Of a stretch of DNA of 32,000 nucleotides, positions 8,006 through 26,285 are shown in pieces. The stretch spans positions 18,455-50,454 of the forward strand of contig JAFWCU010000035.1 in the NCBI GenBank assembly GCA_017534305.1, written 5' to 3'. This DNA comes from Clostridia bacterium (GTDB lineage: Bacteria; Bacillota; Clostridia; TANB77; CAG-465). Both the position numbers and the translations under genes were made by a program. Numbering within the stretch: the first letter of the stretch is position 1; each line of letters begins with the position of its first letter. The notes beneath the pieces were generated by a model, which saw only the letters and a list, made by a program, of their open reading frames with translations, had not been told where the DNA came from and ran no database searches.

Positions 8006-8096
8006 AAAAACAACCTCCAAATTTCACAAAAATTATAGCACAAAGTAATCGTTTTGTTAAGTAAAAAATGTATGAATATTTATTCACATTTTTTTA

Positions 8097-8125
8097 TTGA
8101 CAACACCAAAATAATTAGATATAAT
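8097..8125 (+). promoter_or_regulatory. consensus sigma-A promoter of the metallophosphoesterase cassette
   Basis: TTGACA (8097-8102), 17-nt spacer, TATAAT (8120-8125). Confidence 0.75.
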
Positions 8126-8210
8126 GAAGTCGGTTGGAGAATGATGATGAGCGCAAATAATTTTTTGGCTTGGTTTTTTAAATTAATATTTAAAAAAGGA
8201 GGGAGTTTAT

Positions 8211-9170
8211 ATGAAAAATTATAGCAAAGTAGTCGAAAAGATGAAAAGTAAGCAGCTCACTCTTAAACAACTCAAATTAACCATGGAGGATATCAACTAT
8301 CTAAGAGACAATGGTCACAACGTGAAAGAACAATATGATCCTCGTGTAGAGGACTATGTATATTATATTGTCACATCTGGAGACACTGCATATATAAAAA
8401 TTTCTGATTCTTTAAAACAAGGACAAGAAGTAAACTTAAAACTTCTTGAAATATCCGATCTGCATTGCGGATGTAGAAATTTTGATAAGCAAGGCTTAGA
8501 TAGAACCCTTCAAGAGGCACAGGCTAGAGGAGTAGAGTTTGTTCACATTTCAGGAGACTTGATTGACGGATTTGGAGTTTATAGGGGACAAGAAAATAAC
8601 CTAAAACACAACAAAGCAATCGAGCAAATCAATGAACTGATGGCAGTTCTTGAAAAGTACGATTTTTGGTATATAGCCAGTATGGGTAACCATGATCAAT
8701 CATTTTGTATGAAAGGTGGGCTAGATCCAATTAAGTACTTGGAGGCTAAGATGGCAAAAAAAGGTAAAAGATTTACCTACTTAAGCGCCTACGAAGCAAA
8801 TATAATTCATGCAGGAATTGTATTTAGGTTGATCCACTTGTCTGGTGGTGCAGCTAGAGCAGCTTCATATAAAGTTCAAGTGTATCTTTCTAGAGTATTT
8901 GAAAGTAACCTAAACGATGTTGAGATAGGAGGCAAAATATATAACCTACGAAGCATTCAAGCAGGACACTTTCATACATTCTATTCACTATCGATGAGCG
9001 GTATAAGAATAATTATGCCGGGCAATTTCCAACACGATGGTGATCTTGAAAAGAGAATGGGTATTTCTGGAAAAACAGGGGGAATCTTCACTGAACTTAC
9101 TATTATTGGAGACAAAATAGCAAGGGAGAAGATAGAGTTCTTTGATCCTTGGGAAAGGAAGGAGGGATAA
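8211..9170 (+). CDS. calcineurin-like metallophosphoesterase with intact active site and an unassigned ~85-aa N-terminal domain (MPE-A)
   Basis: AGGAGGGAG RBS. Motifs ISDLHCG (DxH), SGDLIDG (GDxxD), MGNHDQS (GNHD), LIHLSGG (H) and AGHFHT (GHxH). Confidence 0.8.
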   Translation: MKNYSKVVEKMKSKQLTLKQLKLTMEDINYLRDNGHNVKEQYDPRVEDYVYYIVTSGDTAYIKISDSLKQGQEVNLKLLEISDLHCGCRNFDKQGLDRTLQEAQARGVEFVHISGDLIDGFGVYRGQENNLKHNKAIEQINELMAVLEKYDFWYIASMGNHDQSFCMKGGLDPIKYLEAKMAKKGKRFTYLSAYEANIIHAGIVFRLIHLSGGAARAASYKVQVYLSRVFESNLNDVEIGGKIYNLRSIQAGHFHTFYSLSMSGIRIIMPGNFQHDGDLEKRMGISGKTGGIFTELTIIGDKIAREKIEFFDPWERKEG

Positions 9171-9173
9171 TCT

Positions 9174-10136
9174 ATGAAAGAAGATTTTTTAACCTCACAA
9201 AAAGCATCTAATGCTCTTTCAAAAATGCGTGCAAAAGCGTGTACTTTAGAAGAGTTAGAACTTACACAAGAACAGATGGACGAGTTGATAGCAGCAACAG
9301 GAAATATTAACTGTAACGACAGGAATAAGACATATTATATAACTAAGTTTAATGAGAACAATTATGAAATAATTTCTTTTATAAACAGCGAAGAAATTAC
9401 TGAAAAATGGCTAGAAATAAGTGACTTGTACCTTGGTAGTGTTTTCTGTGATATGGAAATGCTTGAATATATCCTAAAACTTGCAAAAGAAGAAGGTATA
9501 ACCAACGTTCATATTGCTGGCGATTTATGCGCAGGACATCCTTCGTATAAAAAACAAGATTTGTATCTTACAGCAAAGACTGCACAAGAACAGGCTGATA
9601 TTGCTATAAAGCTTTTCTCTAAATTCCCAGAATTTAAATATTACTGTATTAATGGAGAAAGGGACCTATCATTTGAAAAAGGTGACTCTATTAACCCAAT
9701 CGTTTTAGTTCAAAGAGCTTTAAACGAAAAAGGAATAGATTTCCATCATATCAATGAAATGGTAGCAAACTTAGTCATAGACGGTGTAGTTAAGAGAATC
9801 CAGCATGGAACAGGAAGACTTGCATACACAAAGTCATACAAAATTGAGAAAGAAATGTGGCAGCAATTCGAAAATATGAGTGACAATGTCATCATAAAGA
9901 ATCGCAACTACAATATATGCTTTGTTCAATTCGGACATTATCATGTTAACTGTTTACAAAGATTGGGCGGAATAATGATTACATCAACTGCAGGTATGGT
10001 TATGGATGATAAAGGCGTTTTAAACGAGAATACATCATATCCATCTGCCAAATTCTCTACAGCTGTTATCAAGAATGGTAAAGTTGTAAGATTTGTGACT
10101 GAAAGCATTACCAATCCTAAAAACGTTACCATGTAA
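9174..10136 (+). CDS. paralogous metallophosphoesterase-fold protein with degenerate metal-binding motifs (MPE-B, probable pseudoenzyme)
   Basis: Starts 3 nt after the MPE-A stop. Aligns with MPE-A throughout, but the motifs read ISDLYLG, AGDLCAG and INGERDLS. RIQHGTG and FGHYHV are retained. Confidence 0.75.
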   Translation: MKEDFLTSQKASNALSKMRAKACTLEELELTQEQMDELIAATGNINCNDRNKTYYITKFNENNYEIISFINSEEITEKWLEISDLYLGSVFCDMEMLEYILKLAKEEGITNVHIAGDLCAGHPSYKKQDLYLTAKTAQEQADIAIKLFSKFPEFKYYCINGERDLSFEKGDSINPIVLVQRALNEKGIDFHHINEMVANLVIDGVVKRIQHGTGRLAYTKSYKIEKEMWQQFENMSDNVIIKNRNYNICFVQFGHYHVNCLQRLGGIMITSTAGMVMDDKGVLNENTSYPSAKFSTAVIKNGKVVRFVTESITNPKNVTM

Positions 10137-10140
10137 CTAT

Positions 10141-10178
10141 AAAAAAAGAGAGTACCAATTATTTGGTATTCTCTTTTT
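10141..10178. terminator. bidirectional rho-independent terminator
   Basis: A-run, 12-bp stem AGAGAGTACCAA (10147-10158) / TTGGTATTCTCT (10163-10174) with one G-T pair, then a T-run. It lies between convergent MPE-B and the XRE gene. Confidence 0.8.
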
Positions 10179-10186
10179 GTGTTAAA

Positions 10187-10798
10187 TTATTCTTTAGAAA
10201 TTACTTTCCTTTGCCAACTTTTCTTTCCACATTCTGGGCATTTCATATATCTTGTTCTACCAAAATGCATAGACCACAATACACTTGAAAATGTTGGAAC
10301 ATATTTATGATGACAGTTATTACATTCATAGTATCCAGCAGTTTGTTCAATTCTTATTGCAAATGGTATGGCAATTGCAAATTGTACAAAACCAATAAGT
10401 ATAAGTAAAACTCTTAGCCAATCTACCATTTCAATAAATGATGCTATAAATACTAAAACTAAAAATGTAATTGAAGCACCAAATCCAATAACATATTCTA
10501 GTGCAAGCATTCTTTTTGCTGTTTCTTCTTGCTCTTTTTTCATAGCAAGTATAATTTCATCATATTTTTTATCATTTTCGTTCATATTAATCATCTCCCC
10601 ATAAAATAATTCATTAATTCCTATACCAAGTATTTCACAAAGCTCTATCATAATAGAAGCGTCTGGTAGTGATTTTCCAGTTTCCCATTTAGATATCGCT
10701 CTATCTGAAATATTTAGTTTTTCTGCAAGTTCTAGTTGTGTAAGACCAACTTCTTTTCTACGAGCAGCAATAAATCTTCCAATTTTGATTTGATCCAT
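10187..10798 (-). CDS. membrane-tethered XRE-family HTH regulator with C-terminal zinc ribbon
   Basis: HTH_XRE core (IGRFIAARRKEVGLTQLELAEKLNISDRAISKWETGKSLPD), two TM segments, and CNNC...CPEC. I chose the ATG at 10798 (MDQIK) because GGAGG lies upstream; the track start is a TTG. Confidence 0.8.
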   Translation of the reverse strand: MDQIKIGRFIAARRKEVGLTQLELAEKLNISDRAISKWETGKSLPDASIMIELCEILGIGINELFYGEMINMNENDKKYDEIILAMKKEQEETAKRMLALEYVIGFGASITFLVLVFIASFIEMVDWLRVLLILIGFVQFAIAIPFAIRIEQTAGYYECNNCHHKYVPTFSSVLWSMHFGRTRYMKCPECGKKSWQRKVISKE

Positions 10799-10891
10799 AA
10801 TACTTTCCTCCTTCAATTATATTTTAATGAATTATTATATAAATTAACACGAACTGTTGGTTGAGTTTCTTCAATTATACCATTTTAAGCC

Positions 10892-10923
10892 AAAAAAAGA
10901 TATATAGAAAAATCTATATATCT
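10892..10923 (-). terminator. rho-independent terminator of the Fic gene
   Basis: Perfect 10-bp stem AGATATATAG (10898-10907) / CTATATATCT (10914-10923). The minus-strand T-run is the + strand A-run 10892-10898. The hairpin includes the Fic stop codon. Confidence 0.75.
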
Positions 10924-11924
10924 AAATGTGTTTTATAATATCGTTGGTTTTTACTCTTAGGCTTATCTGGAATTGTCATCTGTACATATCCATCTCTAAT
11001 AGCACAATTTAAATATTTATTTCTAAGAGTATCTTTGTGTTTAACATCTAATTTGAACATTATTTCATTTGCAGTCATAGGTTCTTCTTCCATATTTTCT
11101 AATAGTCTTTTTACATTAACGCTTGCTTCTGTATATACAAGTTTTGCAATAGTTTCTAAATCTTTTAAAGTTGTATTAATCATATCTAACATAAATTCTA
11201 CAAACACAGTAGATTCGCCATCAATATGAGCTTTAGCTATTGCATCATAATACTCTTTTTGATGTTTTTTTATCTGATTTTCAATAGGTACATATTCAAA
11301 TATATCTCTGTAATTGCATAAAATAGCGTTTTGCCAAAATCTAGCTGTACGGCCATTACCATCTTGAAAAGGATGTATAAAAACAAATTCATAGTGAAAG
11401 ATACAAGACATTATAATAGGATTAATATTATTTTTTTCTCTTTTCATCCAATCAAATAAATCTGAGATTAAATATGGTACTTGCTGTGGTGGAGGACAAA
11501 TAAATATACATTTATCTCCAGCAAAAACACCTTCGTTACCAGTTCTATACTTTCCAGCAAGTGGAGCCAAATCTTTTTCTATGATTCCATGAATCTTTAA
11601 TAAGTCTTTTTCTGAATATGGTTTTACTTTAGTTAATTGTTCATATGCAAGTTTAATATTTTGAACTTCTTTAATTTCATTTTCAGGTCCAACAACTTCT
11701 TTACCATCAATAATATCTCTAACTTGACCTTTAGAAAGCGTATTTCCTTCTATTGCAAGTGAAGCATGAATAGAAGTTATTTGAGTATTTCTTCTAAGTT
11801 TAGGTTCTTTATCTAATCTAGTATAATGTTTGTATTCTCCAACTTTTTCCATAATTGAAGATAAAGTTTCTAACATTTTATTTGTAATTGTAAATGGTGG
11901 AGTATAATTATCCATAAAAGTCAC
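10914..11924 (-). CDS. Fic family protein (class II, autoinhibited AMPylase type) with C-terminal wHTH-like tail
   Basis: Fic motif HPFQDGNGRTARFW. An N-terminal inhibitory-helix motif SLAIEGN matches (S/T)xxxE(G/N). Confidence 0.85.
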   Translation of the reverse strand: MTFMDNYTPPFTITNKMLETLSSIMEKVGEYKHYTRLDKEPKLRRNTQITSIHASLAIEGNTLSKGQVRDIIDGKEVVGPENEIKEVQNIKLAYEQLTKVKPYSEKDLLKIHGIIEKDLAPLAGKYRTGNEGVFAGDKCIFICPPPQQVPYLISDLFDWMKREKNNINPIIMSCIFHYEFVFIHPFQDGNGRTARFWQNAILCNYRDIFEYVPIENQIKKHQKEYYDAIAKAHIDGESTVFVEFMLDMINTTLKDLETIAKLVYTEASVNVKRLLENMEEEPMTANEIMFKLDVKHKDTLRNKYLNCAIRDGYVQMTIPDKPKSKNQRYYKTHLDI

Positions 11925-11972
11925 CTCTTTCTTGCTATTTTAATTATACCATGGATTTAATTAAAAAAACAA

Positions 11973-11994
11973 TATCTTACCTATATCTTACCTA
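11973..11994. repeat. perfect 11-bp tandem direct repeat ATATCTTACCT x2
   Basis: Copies at 11973-11983 and 11984-11994, between the tRNA operon terminator and the Fic promoter region. Confidence 0.9.
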
Positions 11995-12044
11995 AAACAT
12001 ACATAAACAAAATGTTACAATTGTAGAATAAAGCAAAATGAAAA

Positions 12045-12072
12045 TAAAAAAAGACGACTATTTCTAGTCGTC
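12045..12072 (-). terminator. rho-independent terminator of the tRNA operon
   Basis: Minus strand reads GACGACTA-GAAA-TAGTCGTC followed by a T-run (the + strand A-run 12045-12052). Confidence 0.8.
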
Positions 12073-12087
12073 AAACCATTGTTTAGA

Positions 12088-12163
12088 TGGAGCTGAAACT
12101 CAGATTCGAACTGAGGACCTACGGTTTACAAGACCGTTGCTCTACCAACTGAGCTATTCCAGC
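12088..12163 (-). tRNA. tRNA-Thr (anticodon UGU)
   Basis: Reverse complement GCTGGAATAGCTCAGTTGGTAGAGCAACGGTCTTGTAAACCGTAGGTCCTCAGTTCGAATCTGAGTTTCAGCTCCA. It folds as a cloverleaf with anticodon loop CTTGTAA and an encoded CCA. Confidence 0.93.
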
Positions 12164-12177
12164 ATATATACTTTTTA

Positions 12178-12252
12178 TGGTGACCCGTAGGAGAGTCGAA
12201 CTCCTCACTCCGCCGTGAAAGGGCGATGTCTTAACCGATTGACCAACGGGCC
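12178..12252 (-). tRNA. tRNA-Glu (anticodon UUC)
   Basis: Reverse complement GGCCCGTTGGTCAATCGGTTAAGACATCGCCCTTTCACGGCGGAGTGAGGAGTTCGACTCTCCTACGGGTCACCA. Anticodon loop CTTTCAC, encoded CCA. Confidence 0.93.
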
Positions 12253-12258
12253 CCATGA

Positions 12259-12334
12259 TGGTGAGCCATCGCAGATTCGAACTGCGGACAACTTGATTAA
12301 AAGTCAAGTGCTCTGCCAACTGAGCTAATGGCCC
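12259..12334 (-). tRNA. tRNA-Lys (anticodon UUU)
   Basis: Reverse complement GGGCCATTAGCTCAGTTGGCAGAGCACTTGACTTTTAATCAAGTTGTCCGCAGTTCGAATCTGCGATGGCTCACCA. Anticodon loop CTTTTAA, encoded CCA. Confidence 0.93.
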
Positions 12335-12784: not shown

Positions 12785-13126
12785 ATGAAATTAAACAAAT
12801 TATTGTGCATAATGTGTATAACCTTGTGCCTTTTTATAACATCATGTGTCTTTGCTGCAAATAATAATACTACAACAGGATCTACTCCAAGTTTAGTAAC
12901 TAAAATTAATTCTGCATTTACTAGAATTCAAGGCTACCTTAAAAAAATTTCAACCCCAATTGCCGGAGTTTGTATAGCAAGTGGAATAATTATTAGGAAA
13001 TTGAGCTTTGGAGATGAAAAGAAAATGATTACAGGAAAGAGAATAATTACTAATTCTGTAGTAGGATATGCTGCAATTCAACTGTTAGATTTAATAATTA
13101 AATTTATAGAAGCAGTAATAAAATAG
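12785..13126 (+). CDS. small secreted/lipoprotein-like protein with two C-terminal hydrophobic helices (VirB2/TrbC-like topology; function unassigned)
   Basis: Strong RBS AAGGAGGAGG. Signal peptide with a possible lipobox ITSC (Cys21) or an SPase I site VFA-A. Hydrophobic helices TPIAGVCIASGIII and NSVVGYAAIQLLDLII are separated by a charged loop. Confidence 0.6.
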   Translation: MKLNKLLCIMCITLCLFITSCVFAANNNTTTGSTPSLVTKINSAFTRIQGYLKKISTPIAGVCIASGIIIRKLSFGDEKKMITGKRIITNSVVGYAAIQLLDLIIKFIEAVIK

Positions 13127-13127
13127 T

Positions 13128-13922
13128 ATGGAAGAATATATAAAAAGTTTAAATGAAGTCTTAAATAGGCTAAGTATATCGTTAAGAAGCAATATTTATT
13201 CTGTAATAGATAAGATAGCAAATATAGATGTTTCTCTTTTTGACAAAGAACCACTAAAAAGTATATGCAATACTAATTTACTATATATAGTATTAACACT
13301 AATATGGGCAATAATAATTGCTATTGCAGTAAAATATGTTTTAAATCTATATAGTGACATAGCAATCAGTAAAATATACTTTTATATTTTAAAATGTGTT
13401 GTAATAGGCATCATTAGTATAAATAGTTATAGTATTTGTAAAGAAATTATTAGGATAAATAATCTTCTTACACATATAATAGCTTCATCTTTAGAAGAAA
13501 CAATAGATTCATCAATTGAGTATAAATTTTTAGATGATAACATAGATTCGATAGATGAACTTATATCTTCAAAAGATAAACTTAGTTTAAATGGAGTAAA
13601 AGATGGTATAGTTTGTTTTTATATGATATCCCTTTTAGTATTATTATCTCTAAGATATGTAATAGTAATATCATGCATAATTATCTCACCAGTAATGTGT
13701 ATATTATTACTTGTGCCTAACTTAAATAATTATTTTTATACATATATAAAAGTATTCATATACAATCTATTACTTCAAAACATAAACATACTTATACTAT
13801 ATATACCAATATCTGCAAGAACAGAAAATAGTGTTTTCTTACCTATCATAATAGGTAGCATTGTACTTATATATAATGTAAATAAAAAGGCTGGAAGTAT
13901 TATTTATGAGAAAAAGAATTAA
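13128..13922 (+). CDS. polytopic membrane protein, 5-6 TM (VirB6/TrbL-like topology; function unassigned)
   Basis: The ATG lies 1 nt after the upstream stop. There are several long hydrophobic segments and no soluble-domain motif. Confidence 0.6.
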   Translation: MEEYIKSLNEVLNRLSISLRSNIYSVIDKIANIDVSLFDKEPLKSICNTNLLYIVLTLIWAIIIAIAVKYVLNLYSDIAISKIYFYILKCVVIGIISINSYSICKEIIRINNLLTHIIASSLEETIDSSIEYKFLDDNIDSIDELISSKDKLSLNGVKDGIVCFYMISLLVLLSLRYVIVISCIIISPVMCILLLVPNLNNYFYTYIKVFIYNLLLQNINILILYIPISARTENSVFLPIIIGSIVLIYNVNKKAGSIIYEKKN

Positions 13923-14262
13923 TAAACAACAAATATTTAATTTTTATAATAAAACACACAAGTGGCATGGCTTAATAGATTATAAATCATTAACGATAAT
14001 AGCTGTGTACGTATTTTTATGTGGCTATCTAGTGATCAACATGAATATTACAAATACGCTAAAGTTATATGTAATTATTATATTAGTTTTACCAGTAATA
14101 ATATTTACACTTTTAAATATTAATGAAGATTGTGTTGTTGAAAAACTTGTTACAATTGTCTGTTATTTACTATCTAAAAGGGTGTATACAAAGTCAATAG
14201 ATTTCAAGGAAAAGAAGACTATCTACAAAAAGAATGCGGAAAATAGTCGTATTGAAAAATAG
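13906..14262 (+). CDS. small two-TM protein (TcpE/VirB3-like size and topology; function unassigned)
   Basis: Overlaps the upstream gene by 17 nt. 118 aa: a basic aromatic N-terminus, two TM helices, and a basic C-terminal tail. Confidence 0.55.
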   Translation: MRKRINKQQIFNFYNKTHKWHGLIDYKSLTIIAVYVFLCGYLVINMNITNTLKLYVIIILVLPVIIFTLLNINEDCVVEKLVTIVCYLLSKRVYTKSIDFKEKKTIYKKNAENSRIEK

Positions 14263-21233: not shown

Positions 21234-21564
21234 GTAGTATTTCAGATGATTGCTTGCCTTTATGGCCAGAGGAAAGTCCGGACACTATAGAGCAGGGTGC
21301 TAGATAACGTCTAGTGGGAGTGATTCTAAGGAAAGTGCAACAGAAAATTACCGCTACTTTTGTAGTAAGGGTGAAAACGCGAGGTAAGAGCTCACGACAA
21401 TCTATGGAGACACAGATTGGGTGTAAACCCCACCTAGTGCAACACCAGAATGAAACGATATCAGGTTGCTCGCCAAGTTTCAAGTTGGTGGCTTGAGATG
21501 CATAGCAATATGCATTCTAGATAAATAATCATCTAATACAGAATCCGGCTTATGAAATGCTCAT
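21234..21564 (+). ncRNA. rnpB: RNase P RNA (bacterial), compact, about 330 nt; ends approximate
   Basis: Universal P4 halves GAGGAAAGTCCGG (from 21269) and ACAGAATCCGGCTTA (from 21538). P2 is AGATGATT / AATCATCT and P1 is AGTATTTC / GAAATGCT. An upstream TGaTATAAT (21222-27) fits the 5' end. Confidence 0.9.
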
Positions 21565-21577
21565 ATTTATATTTTTT

Positions 21578-21716: not shown

Positions 21717-22415
21717 ATGGAGTTTAAAGCTTTAGAAGGAAAAAATGTAGAAATACAAGTAGGAGACAACAAATATATGAGACATGCAATTGAGACTCAC
21801 TACATTCAACTTGGTGAAAGTTATATTGACATTGTTAAACAATATGTTTCTCCTATTTACGAAGAGGGAGATATTGTATCGTTTAGTGAAAAAATAATTT
21901 CTTTATGCCAAAAGAATATTGTATATAAAAAGGACGTAAAAGTATCCGGTCTTGCTAAGTTCTTATCTAAATTTGCTATGAGAACAGATGCAGGTATCGG
22001 TGTAGATAGCCCATATAAAATGCAATTTGCTATAGATATAAATGGACCTTGGAAAGTTTTATGGGCAGCAATAGCTGGAGGATTCTGCAAAATTTTTGGA
22101 AAACATGGTGTTTTCTATGAAATCGTAGGTAAAGAAGTTAGTGGACTTGATGGATTCTATGGAGATGTATTCTCAGATTATTCAGAATTTGGTATCAAAA
22201 TTCCACAAAATCCAAATGGAGTATGTAATGAAATATACGAAAAAACAGGAGTTAAATCTATGATTGTTGATGCAAATGACTTTAACCAAGAAATACTAGG
22301 TAAAGCAGATGCAATTGAAGAATCTGAAGAAGAACTAATTGGTATGATCAAAGATAACCCTTGTGGTCAAGCCAAAACATTAACACCAATGGTATTAATT
22401 AGAAAAGTTAAATAG
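21717..22415 (+). CDS. CofE-like (F420-0:gamma-glutamyl ligase fold) protein
   Basis: GDIVSFSEKIISLCQ resembles the CofE GD(I/V)xVxxxKxxSKAEG segment. The C-terminal DNPCGQAKTLTPMVLIRK resembles the conserved CofE tail. Assignment by eye. Confidence 0.5.
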   Translation: MEFKALEGKNVEIQVGDNKYMRHAIETHYIQLGESYIDIVKQYVSPIYEEGDIVSFSEKIISLCQKNIVYKKDVKVSGLAKFLSKFAMRTDAGIGVDSPYKMQFAIDINGPWKVLWAAIAGGFCKIFGKHGVFYEIVGKEVSGLDGFYGDVFSDYSEFGIKIPQNPNGVCNEIYEKTGVKSMIVDANDFNQEILGKADAIEESEEELIGMIKDNPCGQAKTLTPMVLIRKVK

Positions 22416-22441
22416 ATTTAATTTAGAAGAGGGGTTGAATT

Positions 22442-23011
22442 ATGGATAGTTTATTTAAAATGAACAAGTTTGAGGTTATTGACTTACCAGGTATGAACAC
22501 ATTAGCTTTTTTAGTTGAAAGAGATTATGATGCGTATACTCAAGGTTATGCATATTTATCTCTAGAAAAGCTAAGAAGTGTAGAGGTAAGAGAAGAAAAC
22601 CAAGTAAAAAAAGTATTTAATGTGCTTGTTGATGACCCAGAAGATGAAGACGATATAGTTCTTCTAACACTTACAGATAGCAAAGCATTCTTAAGTACAG
22701 GAATCCTAGATAAAAATGGATTTACAGTAGAAAATAGTAATGTTTCTCTAACATATGGCTCAATATATAATACAGAAGGTATTGAGTACAGAGATGTTGC
22801 TTACACACCAGACTTAAGAAGAAACTTCTCAATTATTGATTCTCAAACAGGAGAAGAAGTTAAACCTTCTCTATATAGAGACGATAATGGTGAGGTCAGA
22901 GGTAGATGCAAAATTATGCCTAATAGACCATACATAGTATTAGAAGTATCAATGGAAGATGAAGACATTAGAAAATTAAAGCTTGATGAAGAAGCAGATG
23001 AAATGATTTAG
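22442..23011 (+). CDS. acidic hypothetical protein (189 aa)
   Basis: RBS GAGGGG. Rich in D/E (DDPEDEDD, MEDEDIRKLKLDEEADEMI). No family recognised. Confidence 0.6.
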   Translation: MDSLFKMNKFEVIDLPGMNTLAFLVERDYDAYTQGYAYLSLEKLRSVEVREENQVKKVFNVLVDDPEDEDDIVLLTLTDSKAFLSTGILDKNGFTVENSNVSLTYGSIYNTEGIEYRDVAYTPDLRRNFSIIDSQTGEEVKPSLYRDDNGEVRGRCKIMPNRPYIVLEVSMEDEDIRKLKLDEEADEMI

Positions 23012-23225: not shown

Positions 23226-25334
23226 ATGAGAGATTTTTTTGATGATTTTAAACAAAAAGCTCCAATACTTATAATTATATCACTTATACTATCTATTGTT
23301 TTTGGTGGAGCATTAACAAAATCAATTGTAGATGCAAAAGCTGCTGGCAGTACTTCAATGATTGCTACAATATTTTCTACTTTGTTAGGAAATATAACAA
23401 GTTTCCAATTTTTCTCTGGAATATTTGCAGACTTTTTAACATTCTTAAAAATTACAGGAGTTATATTTGTTGCTGTATTTGGTATTTATCTATATGCTAA
23501 ATATAAAGCTAGTCAAGTAGGCGAATATGAAGGAAAAGAAAATGGTTCTAGCCAATGGGGTAAAGGAGCAGAAGACTTTAAGCACGCATCAGATGGTAAA
23601 GAAATACTAAACAAAAAAGAAGGATTTATACTAAGTAAAACACATTACTTAGGAACAGATTTAAGAAAAGTTGGTATCAATAAAAACATTCTTGTTGTCG
23701 GTGGTTCTGGTTCTGGTAAAACTGCATGTTATATTAAACCAAATATCATGCAATGTTTAGGATCATATATTATCACTGACCCTAAAGGAGAATTATATAA
23801 AGAGACATCACAATTTTTAAAATCTGAAGGCTATGATGTTAAAGCATTTAACCTTGTAAACCCAACATATAGTGATTTCTATAACCCAATATACAATATA
23901 TGTTCAGACCAAGACGTAGATACATTAGCTCACATCTTAGTTACAGGAGCAAATAAAGAAGGTGGCGGCGGAGATGACCCATTCTGGGATAACACTGCAA
24001 AAATGTTAATTTCTGCTACTATTTACTATGTTTTATCTGTTCTACCATTAGAACAACAAAACATAGGAAGCTGTCTAAACATTATTCGTCAAGGTGGTGC
24101 AGATAGTTCAATATTTGAAAAATTATTTGTTGATGATTTAATGCCAGAACATCCTGGTAGAATTCAATATGAATCATTTAAAACTGCTGCAGATAAAACA
24201 ATGCAATCAATAGTTATTTCATCTATTTCTAAAATGCGTGTTTTTGATATGCCAGCAATTCAAAGAATAACATCATCTAACAGCATTAACTTTAGAGATG
24301 TTGCAAAGAAGAAAACAGTTATATATGTTATAACATCAGCTGCTGAAAGTACATATGATTTTGTATCTACAATGTTCTTTAGCCAAATGTTCTCAATACT
24401 ATATAAACAAGCAGATGACTATGGTTCAAGATTACCAAATCAAGTATATTTCTTACTAGATGAGTTTGCAAACATTGGTCAAATACCAGACTTTCAAAAG
24501 AAGTTATCTACAACTCGTAGTTTAGGTATTTCTATCTCAATTATTGTACAATCACTTGACCAATTAGAAGCATTATACAAAGACTCATATGAAAATATTC
24601 TTGGTAACTGTGATACTCAATTATTACTTGGTACTAACTCACAAAAAACAGCTGAGTATTTCTCAAAGAGTTTAGGACAAACAACAATTAAGATTGAACA
24701 AAAATCTGTTAGCAAAGATAAAGACGAACATAAAAAACAAAGTGTATCTGTAAGTACACAAAGACAAGCAAGAGATCTAATGACTGTTGATGAAATTAGA
24801 CGTATGGATAACAACAAAGAAATTCTTATGGTTAGAGGTCTAAAGCCAATTATGGCAGAAAAAGCTTGGTACTTTAAAGTTCATCCAAAAAGAGATATTA
24901 TCGAATCAATGAAACTTGGAAGTATCAAAGATATGCCAATACCAGAAGAACTTCCATATTCATATTTTGATGTTCAAAAATACTTACAAGACAGAAAAAG
25001 ACGTGCTCAAGAAATTCTTAAAAACAGATCAAAAGATGTTCAAGTGGACACTGGATATTCATCTGCTACTCAAGACAAAAGCAGACCATATGGCACTGTA
25101 GATAAAAATAGAGAAGCAGAAATTGATCATAGACCACTTGCAAATGGAATGGATTCAAATTCATATAATGATTTATATGAAAACAATGACTATAATCCAA
25201 TTGCTGATGCTCAAACAAGTGAAAGCAAAGCACCAAATGAAATAACTCAAGAAGATTATGATCTACAATCTGAACTTGAATCTAAATTTGATAAACTATT
25301 CGGTTCAAGCAGCTCTGCTGTTAATGACGATTAA
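23226..25334 (+). CDS. type IV coupling protein (VirD4/TraG/TraD family ATPase)
   Basis: N-terminal TM helices, Walker A VVGGSGSGKT, ITDPKGELY, Walker B VYFLLDEFANIG, SIIVQSLDQL, and an acidic C-terminal tail. Confidence 0.85.
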   Translation: MRDFFDDFKQKAPILIIISLILSIVFGGALTKSIVDAKAAGSTSMIATIFSTLLGNITSFQFFSGIFADFLTFLKITGVIFVAVFGIYLYAKYKASQVGEYEGKENGSSQWGKGAEDFKHASDGKEILNKKEGFILSKTHYLGTDLRKVGINKNILVVGGSGSGKTACYIKPNIMQCLGSYIITDPKGELYKETSQFLKSEGYDVKAFNLVNPTYSDFYNPIYNICSDQDVDTLAHILVTGANKEGGGGDDPFWDNTAKMLISATIYYVLSVLPLEQQNIGSCLNIIRQGGADSSIFEKLFVDDLMPEHPGRIQYESFKTAADKTMQSIVISSISKMRVFDMPAIQRITSSNSINFRDVAKKKTVIYVITSAAESTYDFVSTMFFSQMFSILYKQADDYGSRLPNQVYFLLDEFANIGQIPDFQKKLSTTRSLGISISIIVQSLDQLEALYKDSYENILGNCDTQLLLGTNSQKTAEYFSKSLGQTTIKIEQKSVSKDKDEHKKQSVSVSTQRQARDLMTVDEIRRMDNNKEILMVRGLKPIMAEKAWYFKVHPKRDIIESMKLGSIKDMPIPEELPYSYFDVQKYLQDRKRRAQEILKNRSKDVQVDTGYSSATQDKSRPYGTVDKNREAEIDHRPLANGMDSNSYNDLYENNDYNPIADAQTSESKAPNEITQEDYDLQSELESKFDKLFGSSSSAVNDD

Positions 25335-25423: not shown

Positions 25424-25445
25424 CTAGGTATATGTGGAGGGGTAT

Positions 25446-26138
25446 ATGAACAAGGAAAAAGGATTAATTGCTATAATAGTAATTATAGTGTCAGTTGTGT
25501 TAACTATTTTTATCGCAATGTGGCTCCTAGATACTACCGGAAAAGTGAATCAAGGGAATTATAGAATAAGCGATATTATCATACAATCTGGCGCTACAGT
25601 AACTGAAGTGCAAGATAATAGTGTTAAAATAGAAAAACTATCTGGTCTATTTTTTGATGTTTCACAAACAAATGAAGTAACTATTTTTGTAGAAGCAAAT
25701 ACAAAAATTGCATCTATGATGCTAGACAATATCAAAATATCAGATCCAGTATTAAAAGGAAAAATGAGCCTTGCTCAAAAAGACTACGAAAAATATGACA
25801 TTACTCAAGATTTAAAATCGTTACCATTATATTTAGAAGAAAAAGATGGTCAATACAAAATATGTCTTGTCATAGATAATGATAAAGTAATTACAGATAA
25901 AAACGTAAGTGATGATAAAGATAGTATTCCATACTCAGGAGAAATATTTAAACTTTGGAATATACCAGTAAGTGACTTAACTTTTGATGTTTCTTTTGAA
26001 CTTATCATTACAGACGAATCAGGAACAAAAGTTAAAACAGAAATTAAACTAAAGATGCCAGCAGAAGAGATGTTAGAGTCAGGAATGTCTATTCTAAAAC
26101 AAGACGCAAGTAAATATTTATTTACTATACAAAAATAA
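25446..26138 (+). CDS. N-terminally membrane-anchored, beta-rich extracytoplasmic protein (function unknown)
   Basis: ATG at 25446, 5 nt after GGAGG; the track start at 25434 is a GTG inside the RBS. Single TM LIAIIVIIVSVVLTIFIAMWLL. Confidence 0.6.
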   Translation: MNKEKGLIAIIVIIVSVVLTIFIAMWLLDTTGKVNQGNYRISDIIIQSGATVTEVQDNSVKIEKLSGLFFDVSQTNEVTIFVEANTKIASMMLDNIKISDPVLKGKMSLAQKDYEKYDITQDLKSLPLYLEEKDGQYKICLVIDNDKVITDKNVSDDKDSIPYSGEIFKLWNIPVSDLTFDVSFELIITDESGTKVKTEIKLKMPAEEMLESGMSILKQDASKYLFTIQK

Positions 26139-26178: not shown

Positions 26179-26186
26179 ATCACTAT

Positions 26187-26263
26187 GCCAAGCGATAGAG
26201 TACTGTGAACCTTGTCAGGTCCGGAAGGAAGCAGCAATAAGCAATATACTCTATGTGCCTGGC
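26187..26263 (+). ncRNA. ffs: small (4.5S-type) signal recognition particle RNA, about 77 nt
   Basis: Conserved domain IV core GTCAGGTCCGGAAGGAAGCAGC. The ends GCCAAGCGATAGAGTA / TACTCTATGTGCCTGGC pair into one long hairpin, followed by T7. Confidence 0.85.
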
Positions 26264-26285
26264 TTTTTTTGTTATAGGAGGGAAT

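Follow-up and report, generated by a model that had tools for sequence, protein, structure and literature searches.

A conserved gene pair of Clostridia encodes a DP1-like metallophosphoesterase and its apparently disabled paralog

DP1, the small subunit of archaeal PolD, is an Mre11-like 3′-5′ proofreading exonuclease (PDB 5ihe, 6knb, and 8ppt). Compared with Mre11, it has two extended loops, residues 403-423 and 577-597, which build an "exo channel" that accepts single-stranded DNA (ssDNA) only; stacking on the primer involves Y412 and F586, mutation of which lowers the exonuclease rate (Betancurt-Anzola et al., PMC10721889). PolD has been described as exclusive to Archaea, and the DP1-type proofreading phosphodiesterase is said to be active only in this enzyme, while the B-subunits of the eukaryotic polymerases α, δ, and ε possess DP1-type phosphodiesterase domains that have lost catalysis and are kept as structural partners (PMC10721889). 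Here, we describe two adjacent genes, A and B, located in a 32,000-nt stretch of DNA (the window; 30% G+C) from an uncultured gut Clostridia bacterium (GenBank assembly GCA_017534305.1, contig JAFWCU010000035.1, positions 18,455 to 50,454 of the forward strand). The closest known family of protein A, by both sequence and fold, is archaeal DP1.

Gene A (8211-9170, plus strand) encodes 319 amino acids and gene B (9174-10136, plus strand) encodes 320; they lie 3 nt apart in the same reading frame. A preliminary description of the window, made from the sequence alone, had reported two same-strand genes of these lengths and spacing whose products align end to end, and our open reading frame (ORF) coordinates agree. 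The paralogy also holds: BLASTP aligns A and B with 31% identity over 264 residues (E = 1e-32), and profile-profile comparison with hhalign matches residues 6-312 at 100% probability (E = 3.7e-40), a span from which it follows that the paralogs have their N-terminal domain in common. The metagenome-assembled genome "Clostridia bacterium Tb.RUG.55" has a contig that encodes both proteins with 100% identity, and A and B are 98% and 97% identical, respectively, to their counterparts in a Clostridiaceae assembly.

Similarity of protein A to DP1

At a threshold of E < 1, neither A nor B of the window matched any Pfam family, PF04042 included; PF00149, which is precomputed for many of their close homologs, was not reached at this threshold either. 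In NCBIfam, models of DP1, the archaeal PolD small subunit, took the top five places for A, the best at E = 2.6e-17. When a profile of the A family was compared with PDB sequences, it matched DP1 at E values of 4e-12 to 4e-9 and Mre11 at 1e-3 only, and the equivalent B-family profile matched no PDB sequence.

Comparison of folds led to the same family. The AlphaFold2 model of A (predicted local distance difference test, pLDDT, 82; predicted template modelling score, pTM, 0.86) consists of an N-terminal module followed by the β-α-β-α-β sandwich of the metallophosphoesterases. Foldseek returned 165 PDB matches at E ≤ 1e-3, those listed all being metallophosphoesterases. The ten best were all DP1 (E = 1e-9 to 5e-8), and behind them ranked Mre11/SbcD, Rv0805, GpdQ, and 5′-nucleotidases.

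Relatives of the pair are also found among phage proteins. PHROG 7339, annotated as "DNA repair exonuclease", matches A at 2e-11 and B at 9e-9, and structural neighbors of viral origin include phage proteins automatically annotated as "DNA polymerase II small subunit". Significant profile and structural matches connect these phage proteins with A and B; unlike A and B, they are encoded by single genes without a dead paralog, and they are themselves uncharacterised. None of the A/B relatives that we examined bears an informative name, and our searches of the literature on "DP1-like" phosphoesterases and bacterial DP1 homologs found no description of the A/B family. We take the pair to represent a branch of the metallophosphoesterase nucleases that is uncharacterised, resembles DP1, and bears a predicted winged helix.

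The similarity extends to the two loops that confer strand selectivity on DP1. With the chain-to-residue offset of DP1 set at 144, as verified at the catalytic H451, HMMER aligned residues 115-135 of A (GDLIDGFGVYRGQENNLKHNK; 8553-8615, plus strand), a segment that includes motif II, with residues 403-423 of Pyrococcus abyssi DP1 (GDVVDGIGIYPGQYSDLVIPD) without a gap. The counterpart of DP1 577-597 is residues 270-290 of A (9018-9080, plus strand), of which residues 270-285 align with DP1 577-592, again without a gap. Tyr124 of A, which is nearly invariant in the family, falls on DP1 Y412, and position 279, occupied by L, F, or Y, falls on F586. The spacing between motifs II and III is likewise similar, with 44 residues for A versus 46 for DP1; in Pyrococcus furiosus Mre11, it is 35 (D49 to N84). 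Mre11/SbcD has the same phosphodiesterase fold and motifs as A and forms the second tier of fold matches, but its loops are short where those of A are long and of the DP1 type, and its sequence match is the marginal one noted above. It is mainly because both DP1 loops are kept, together with the spacing, that we favor an exonuclease acting on ssDNA 3′ ends over a generic phosphodiesterase.

Ahead of the phosphodiesterase domain lies the N-terminal domain (8211-8420, plus strand, in gene A). In the AlphaFold2 model, residues ~1-63 of A have the order helix-helix-helix-strand-strand with a pLDDT of 87-97, a topology that fits the three-helix bundle and β-hairpin wing of a winged helix. The N-termini of the window proteins have no Pfam match, and searches of Pfam with the isolated N-termini of A and B gave noise only; in distant family members, however, Pfam HTH_11, TrmB, or MarR domains occupy the equivalent position. 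We agree with the preliminary description that A and B share an N-terminal extension that cannot be assigned to a family by sequence, although its length is ~70-75 residues rather than ~85, and predict from the model that the N-terminal ~70 residues form a winged helix.

These domains, and the lower ranks of the fold search, bear on a different explanation, namely that the pair is a nucleotide-signal or small-molecule phosphodiesterase, acting on a cyclic nucleotide, ApnA, or something similar, with the winged helices making it a ligand-processing transcription regulator. Rv0805, which is a cyclic-nucleotide phosphodiesterase, and GpdQ match the fold of A at E ~1e-7, the HTH_11, TrmB, and MarR domains of distant members are of the regulator type, and the pair has no fixed DNA-repair neighbor. 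By sequence, on the other hand, DP1 stands ahead of every other solved family by ~8 orders of magnitude, both of the ssDNA-specific DP1 loops are retained gapless, and the PHROG relatives are labelled exonucleases, albeit by annotation only. We consider such an activity unlikely.

Active-site motifs and pairing of A and B

Protein A has the complete five-motif set of the calcineurin-like superfamily (DxH, GDxxD, GNH[DE], H, and GHxH), whereas B does not. The motifs of A are D83-x-H85, G115-D116-xx-D119, G159-N160-H161-D162, H209, and G252-H253-x-H255, which were invariant in 20 homologs; the residues that are invariant in the A family include D83, H85, D116, N160, H161, H209, H253, and H255, such that all metal ligands are kept. 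In B, motif I reads D-L-Y, motif II GDLCA, and motif III GERD. The motif I His has become Tyr, the second Asp of motif II is now Ala, and Glu-Arg stands where motif III should have Asn-His; these states were invariant in 14 B orthologs. Motif V has additionally been lost in distant B orthologs (loci L018 and L020). Every motif string quoted in the preliminary description is present as written, and its contrast between an intact A and a B with the look of a pseudoenzyme was confirmed, the motif states being fixed across orthologs. A is thus apparently active and B apparently disabled; judged by its motifs, the B lineage would be catalytically dead, yet it is strongly conserved.

The two genes keep company wherever they were found. 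We scanned one genome per species and found 17 loci that are syntenic with the window; the two genes adjoin each other in all 17, and also in two distant lineages in which A is 46% and 56% identical and the surroundings are ackA/pta and glycosyltransferases/DeoC/LexA. The genome search for co-occurrence that the preliminary description had proposed therefore found the pair adjacent in every locus recovered.

Searched exhaustively with HMMER, the A profile yielded 1750 representatives at E ≤ 1e-3, 35 of them at E ≤ 1e-30, and among the matches were natural A-B fusion proteins of ~600-710 residues with the halves in gene order. The first half of the fusions carries motifs I, II, III, and V. The second half is B-like and degenerate, with SNL, GDIVWG, NGDCE, and YGSIRN in place of the motifs, motif V being lost here also; this half was judged to be B-like by eye from the alignment and motif scans, MAFFT having aligned the B homologs with the first half instead. 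Nineteen additional A-B fusions came from a further search, and the genes for the fusions are located among housekeeping genes in spore-formers. In the AlphaFold2 model of one fusion, P0092, the order is winged helix-phosphodiesterase-linker-winged helix-phosphodiesterase, with the modules joined via a helix and a disordered linker, and its whole-chain pTM of 0.71 offers a faint hint that the modules would adopt a defined mutual arrangement.

Given that the natural fusions combine an active first half with a dead second half, A and B would be expected to form a heterodimer, an idea raised in the preliminary description and strengthened by the strict co-occurrence of the genes and by the fusions. 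Mre11 acts as a dimer of phosphodiesterase domains. The A:B pair can be likened to the two protomers of such a dimer, here as a heterodimer with one dead site. It differs from Mre11 in that no Rad50/SbcC ATPase gene adjoins the pair in the window or in loci L002-L023. In the model, A ends at residue 319 with two β-hairpins after motif V, and no separate capping domain is evident there. The preliminary description was accordingly right to set the pair apart from the canonical SbcCD/Mre11-Rad50 module, there being no ORF for an ATPase of this type in the window.

Protein B also resembles the eukaryotic B-subunits, being an inactivated DP1-type phosphodiesterase domain, but there is no detectable direct sequence match from B, and its partner is an active paralog rather than a polymerase catalytic subunit. 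Another explanation is that A:B proofreads in trans while docked on a replicative or repair polymerase of the bacterium, B being the structural adaptor, in a module with a function equivalent to that of DP1 and the B-subunits. DP1 is the nearest family and its loops are conserved, an active/inactive paralog pair echoes the history from DP1 to the B-subunits (PMC10721889), and structural relatives in phages are annotated as "DNA polymerase II small subunit" or "DNA polymerase". Those phage names are automatic annotations, however, and no polymerase gene is linked to the pair at any locus examined; a gene for the DP2 large subunit was found neither in the window nor in any 20-kb locus. Moreover, although A shares with DP1 the metal-binding motifs, the gapless loops, and the similar spacing, it lacks the OB-fold domain and N-terminal domain through which DP1 makes its contacts and has the helix-helix-helix-strand-strand module of ~70 residues in their place; again unlike DP1, it is bacterial, chromosomal, and paired with a dead paralog. 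We regard a polymerase-bound proofreader as decidedly unlikely.

Chromosomal setting, codon usage, and expression of the pair

In every locus that was long enough to judge, the gene order is miaA, HlyD-like, dut, M48, LemA, G5-SLT, ksgA, GDPD, A, and B, with tdk between GDPD and A in most of them, and the pair thus occupies the same chromosomal site in 17/17 of the related species-level genomes. Between species, the identity of A is 78-100% and that of B is 74-100%, compared with 67-77% for ksgA and 58-69% for GDPD, and the pair is also more conserved than most other neighbors. Among the species that give these ksgA and GDPD values, A and B are 74-87% identical. At four-fold degenerate sites, by contrast, the identity of A and B is 0.38-0.55, as low as in the flanking genes. 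Since the synonymous divergence of the pair equals that of its flanks, the pair has diverged together with the chromosome. A and B are under purifying selection, and they are an old, inherited part of the chromosome rather than a recently acquired defence cassette. The horizontal acquisition proposed in the preliminary description is not supported, in view of the conserved synteny, the flank-like synonymous divergence, and the conservation of the pair beyond that of ksgA and GDPD; we reject a recent transfer on account of the synteny and the saturation of synonymous sites.

The remainder of the window is core chromosome (dnaD-like, dnaI-like, gyrA, RNase P RNA, SRP RNA, dnaX, ybaB, and recR). 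A variable spot (10187-12334 in the window) lies between gene B and a conserved cluster of tRNA-Thr, tRNA-Glu, and tRNA-Lys genes (12088-12334, minus strand). In the window, it contains a gene for an XRE-family helix-turn-helix protein (10187-10816), whose C-terminal part is membrane/zinc-ribbon-like, and one for a Fic protein (10914-11924); in locus L003, it contains a 632-residue large serine recombinase and an ABC transporter, and in L014 it is almost empty. The pair was previously said to lie in an accessory interval, but the variable interval begins downstream of gene B, and the pair is the conserved border of an insertion hotspot and not its cargo.

The preliminary description had also suggested that the pair might serve in phage defence. 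PADLOC-DB 2.0 gave zero matches to A or B at E ≤ 1, and neighborhoods that were to be checked for an enrichment in defence or mobile genes turned out to be housekeeping contexts in four unrelated lineages. A defence role was rejected on these two grounds, the PADLOC result and the gene context. The wider proposal of a horizontally acquired anti-phage or prophage-derived cassette can point to a content of G+C at third codon positions (GC3) that is far above that of the neighbors, to the adjoining tRNA-linked insertion spot, to a weak NCBIfam match to the DS9 anti-phage phosphoesterase (E = 0.011, with a score of 14.6 bits where the cut-off is 420), and to distant, single-copy relatives of the same full-length architecture in phage-like contigs that encode a tape measure protein, a DUF5906 primase, ParB, and RNase T. 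Against this, synteny of the pair extends over 17 species, its synonymous sites are no less saturated than those of the flanks, it is better conserved than its housekeeping neighbors, and no close viral relatives came to light: a scan of IMG/VR with A-family patterns did not find the A/B clade, and the isolate phages gave one distant match only, to a Halorubrum virus, which is an archaeal virus. With these findings and the housekeeping contexts in view, an acquired cassette seems very improbable.

The base composition of the pair does differ from that of its surroundings. Our recount of the five 60-nt lines that had been counted by hand gave 25, 25, 25, 17, and 17 G+C, in agreement with all of the earlier counts except that for the second line, which had been given as 26. 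The total G+C is 0.366 for A and 0.333 for B against 0.297 ± 0.026 (z = 2.7 and 1.4), and GC3 is 0.316 and 0.287 against 0.161 ± 0.027 in 30 other ORFs (z = 5.6 and 4.6). The shift in G+C is therefore real and resides mainly in third codon positions, where it comes from G/C-ending codons that are rare elsewhere in the window (for example, AGG, ACC, GTC, CAG, and TTG). Among the genes compared, gene A ranks first in GC3 in 16/16 syntenic loci, and in all lineages examined, including distant ones with different neighbors, GC3 of A and B, or of the fused gene, is above that of every neighbor; the contrast is most extreme in L023, at 0.390 versus 0.144 ± 0.031. As synonymous sites are saturated between species, the excess looks maintained rather than a relic, and the shift in G+C seems to be a trait that the gene family preserves and not the fading trace of a transfer. 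The locus is hence syntenic in 17 genomes, but without the host-like composition that the preliminary description had coupled with a core locus. Our leading idea for the excess is selection for rare codons, which would make translation slow or low, its rival being repeated import from donors of higher G+C.

The pair has its own transcription signals. A sigma-70-type promoter (8097-8125, plus strand), TTGACA-17-TATAAT, matches the consensus at 12/12 positions, and its two hexamers are unchanged across 12 species; such an invariant consensus promoter suggests constitutive transcription. No LexA-box-like element was seen in the promoter region on inspection by eye only. The tdk gene has a divergent promoter (8032-8060, minus strand), TTAACA-17-TATAAT with an extended -10 TG, which stands back-to-back with the A-B promoter across species. 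The 5′ leader of ~85 nt (8126-8210, plus strand) contains the blocks CAGTTG, ATGAGC, and GCTTG, conserved among the 12 species compared, and a strong Shine-Dalgarno sequence, AGGAGGG. Its consensus fold is weak (-2.8 kcal/mol, no covariation), and it matched no Rfam family. In the leaders of most orthologs, UUUCCU could pair with the Shine-Dalgarno sequence, while the window has UUUUUU instead. Gene B is preceded by a strong Shine-Dalgarno sequence of its own, GGAAGGAGGG (plus strand), within the 3′ end of gene A. Downstream, a hairpin terminator (~10143-10178, usable by transcription of either strand), flanked by an A-run and a T-run, is common to the operon and the convergent XRE gene; its folding energy is -21.7 kcal/mol (z = -7.35). 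With this promoter and terminator, the pair is the self-contained unit that it had been described to be.

The gene A of the window is intact, but in four diverged loci (L015:10001-10943, L030:28-990, L031:3001-3940, and L032:511-1468), gene A is broken at the same codon, at a site equivalent to 8925-8942 in the window. An extra C separates the two Gly codons in ...E[IL]GGK[IK]YN..., so that the zero frame reads GG[AC]-CGG-AAA-AA and meets a stop 3-8 codons further on, while the +1 frame reaches the normal stop after 73-80 open codons and retains motif V. The tail in the +1 frame has a nonsynonymous-to-synonymous ratio (dN/dS) of 0.08-0.45 at a proportion of synonymous differences (pS) of 0.32-0.51, similar to the upstream part, and this constraint implies that the tail is still translated. 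In a neighbor-joining tree, the four alleles are not monophyletic, L030 falling outside the clade that holds all intact genes, and the broken state is therefore old or has arisen twice. No gene of the window uses CGG, and GGA, the codon read in the +1 frame, is the most frequent one for Gly. Glass-sponge mitochondria undergo +1 frameshifting at rare CGG_(A) codons created by an insertion 5′ of a GGA codon (Atkins et al., PMC5009743), and the GGA-CGG-A site in the gene A orthologs has the same arrangement. The most economical reading of the alleles is a programmed or compensatory +1 ribosomal frameshift in gene A of a sister clade; the alternatives are a split gene that uses an in-frame ATG-ATG just upstream of the break, and transcriptional slippage in the A-run. 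A scan of metagenomes for the frameshift site recovered only the contig already known and one unrelated chance match of 58% G+C. In another genome assembly (L016:9938-10958), the reading frame of gene A is interrupted elsewhere, near its 5′ third, by a single base, which could reflect an assembly error or a pseudogene.

Two other parts of the window stand out from the core chromosome. A gene for a VirD4/TraG-type coupling protein of type IV secretion (23226-25334; Pfam T4SS-DNA_transf, E = 1e-84) lies between the RNase P RNA (21234-21567) and the SRP RNA (26184-26269); the ORFs on either side of it (21717-23011 and 25434-26138) match nothing in Pfam. The gene may be left over from a conjugative element. 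Upstream of the dnaD-like and dnaI-like genes, at 12785-14262, are three small ORFs of 0.22-0.28 G+C, also without a Pfam match; they are syntenic across species, and two of them are only 32-47% identical, compared with 60-75% for their neighbors.

Proposed activity of the A:B pair

The explanation that we tentatively prefer, and consider quite possible if still short of probable, is that A:B is a stand-alone heterodimeric metallophosphoesterase with one active site, which trims the 3′ ends of single-stranded DNA. A would be the catalytic subunit of this two-gene operon product, and its phosphodiesterase domain would belong to the DP1/Mre11 branch, with both DP1-type loops shutting the active site to duplex DNA and threading a single-stranded 3′ end, as in archaeal PolD. 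B would be its partner, a paralog of ancient origin that has lost catalysis, and the predicted N-terminal winged helix of each subunit could bind DNA or a partner protein. The likeliest activity would be metal-dependent, 3′-to-5′ exonucleolytic trimming of ssDNA ends in the maintenance of chromosomal DNA. We infer the formation of the heterodimer, the DNA substrate, the polarity of the exonuclease, and the cellular role from the comparisons given above.

Several observations weigh against this explanation. The best score of A against the DP1 models (the PRK04036 equivalogs) is 63 bits, well below the family threshold of 445. In the B proteins of this clade, D84, D117, H211, H255, and H257 are invariant, that is, 5/7 of the metal-ligand positions are kept, and B may therefore retain some binding of metal or of a ligand or substrate rather than be a pure scaffold. 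Rv0805, GpdQ, and the 5′-nucleotidases come close behind DP1 in the fold search, which keeps a small-molecule substrate in contention. Finally, no conserved neighbor indicates DNA metabolism: dut, tdk, dnaD, dnaI, and gyrA are nearby here and genes for LexA, RecD2, and a DNA glycosylase elsewhere, but they are inconsistent partners, and as no neighbor is conserved across lineages, the context offers no functional lead.

A more far-reaching scenario, to which we give little credence, would have the pair descend from an undescribed bacterial and phage branch of DP1-type proofreading enzymes. Duplication in Clostridia would then have produced an obligate active/inactive heterodimer, a trans-acting editor of DNA 3′ ends that independently mirrors the path from DP1 to the B-subunits, and rare codons would limit its dosage, as would a programmed +1 frameshift in the sister clade.

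If the preferred explanation is right and A:B is a DP1-like ssDNA exonuclease, there would be an active DP1-type phosphodiesterase outside Archaea, and the pair would constitute a clean natural heterodimer of enzyme and pseudoenzyme, which certain lineages have turned into a single chain. Translational control of such a nuclease is suggested by the maintained bias toward rare codons and by the conserved frameshift alleles. For the genome itself, the defence-island reading is corrected, in that the pair is neither an accessory nor a mobile cassette. Because it is more conserved than the neighboring housekeeping genes, it probably fills a role in DNA maintenance that in other bacteria is covered by different nucleases.

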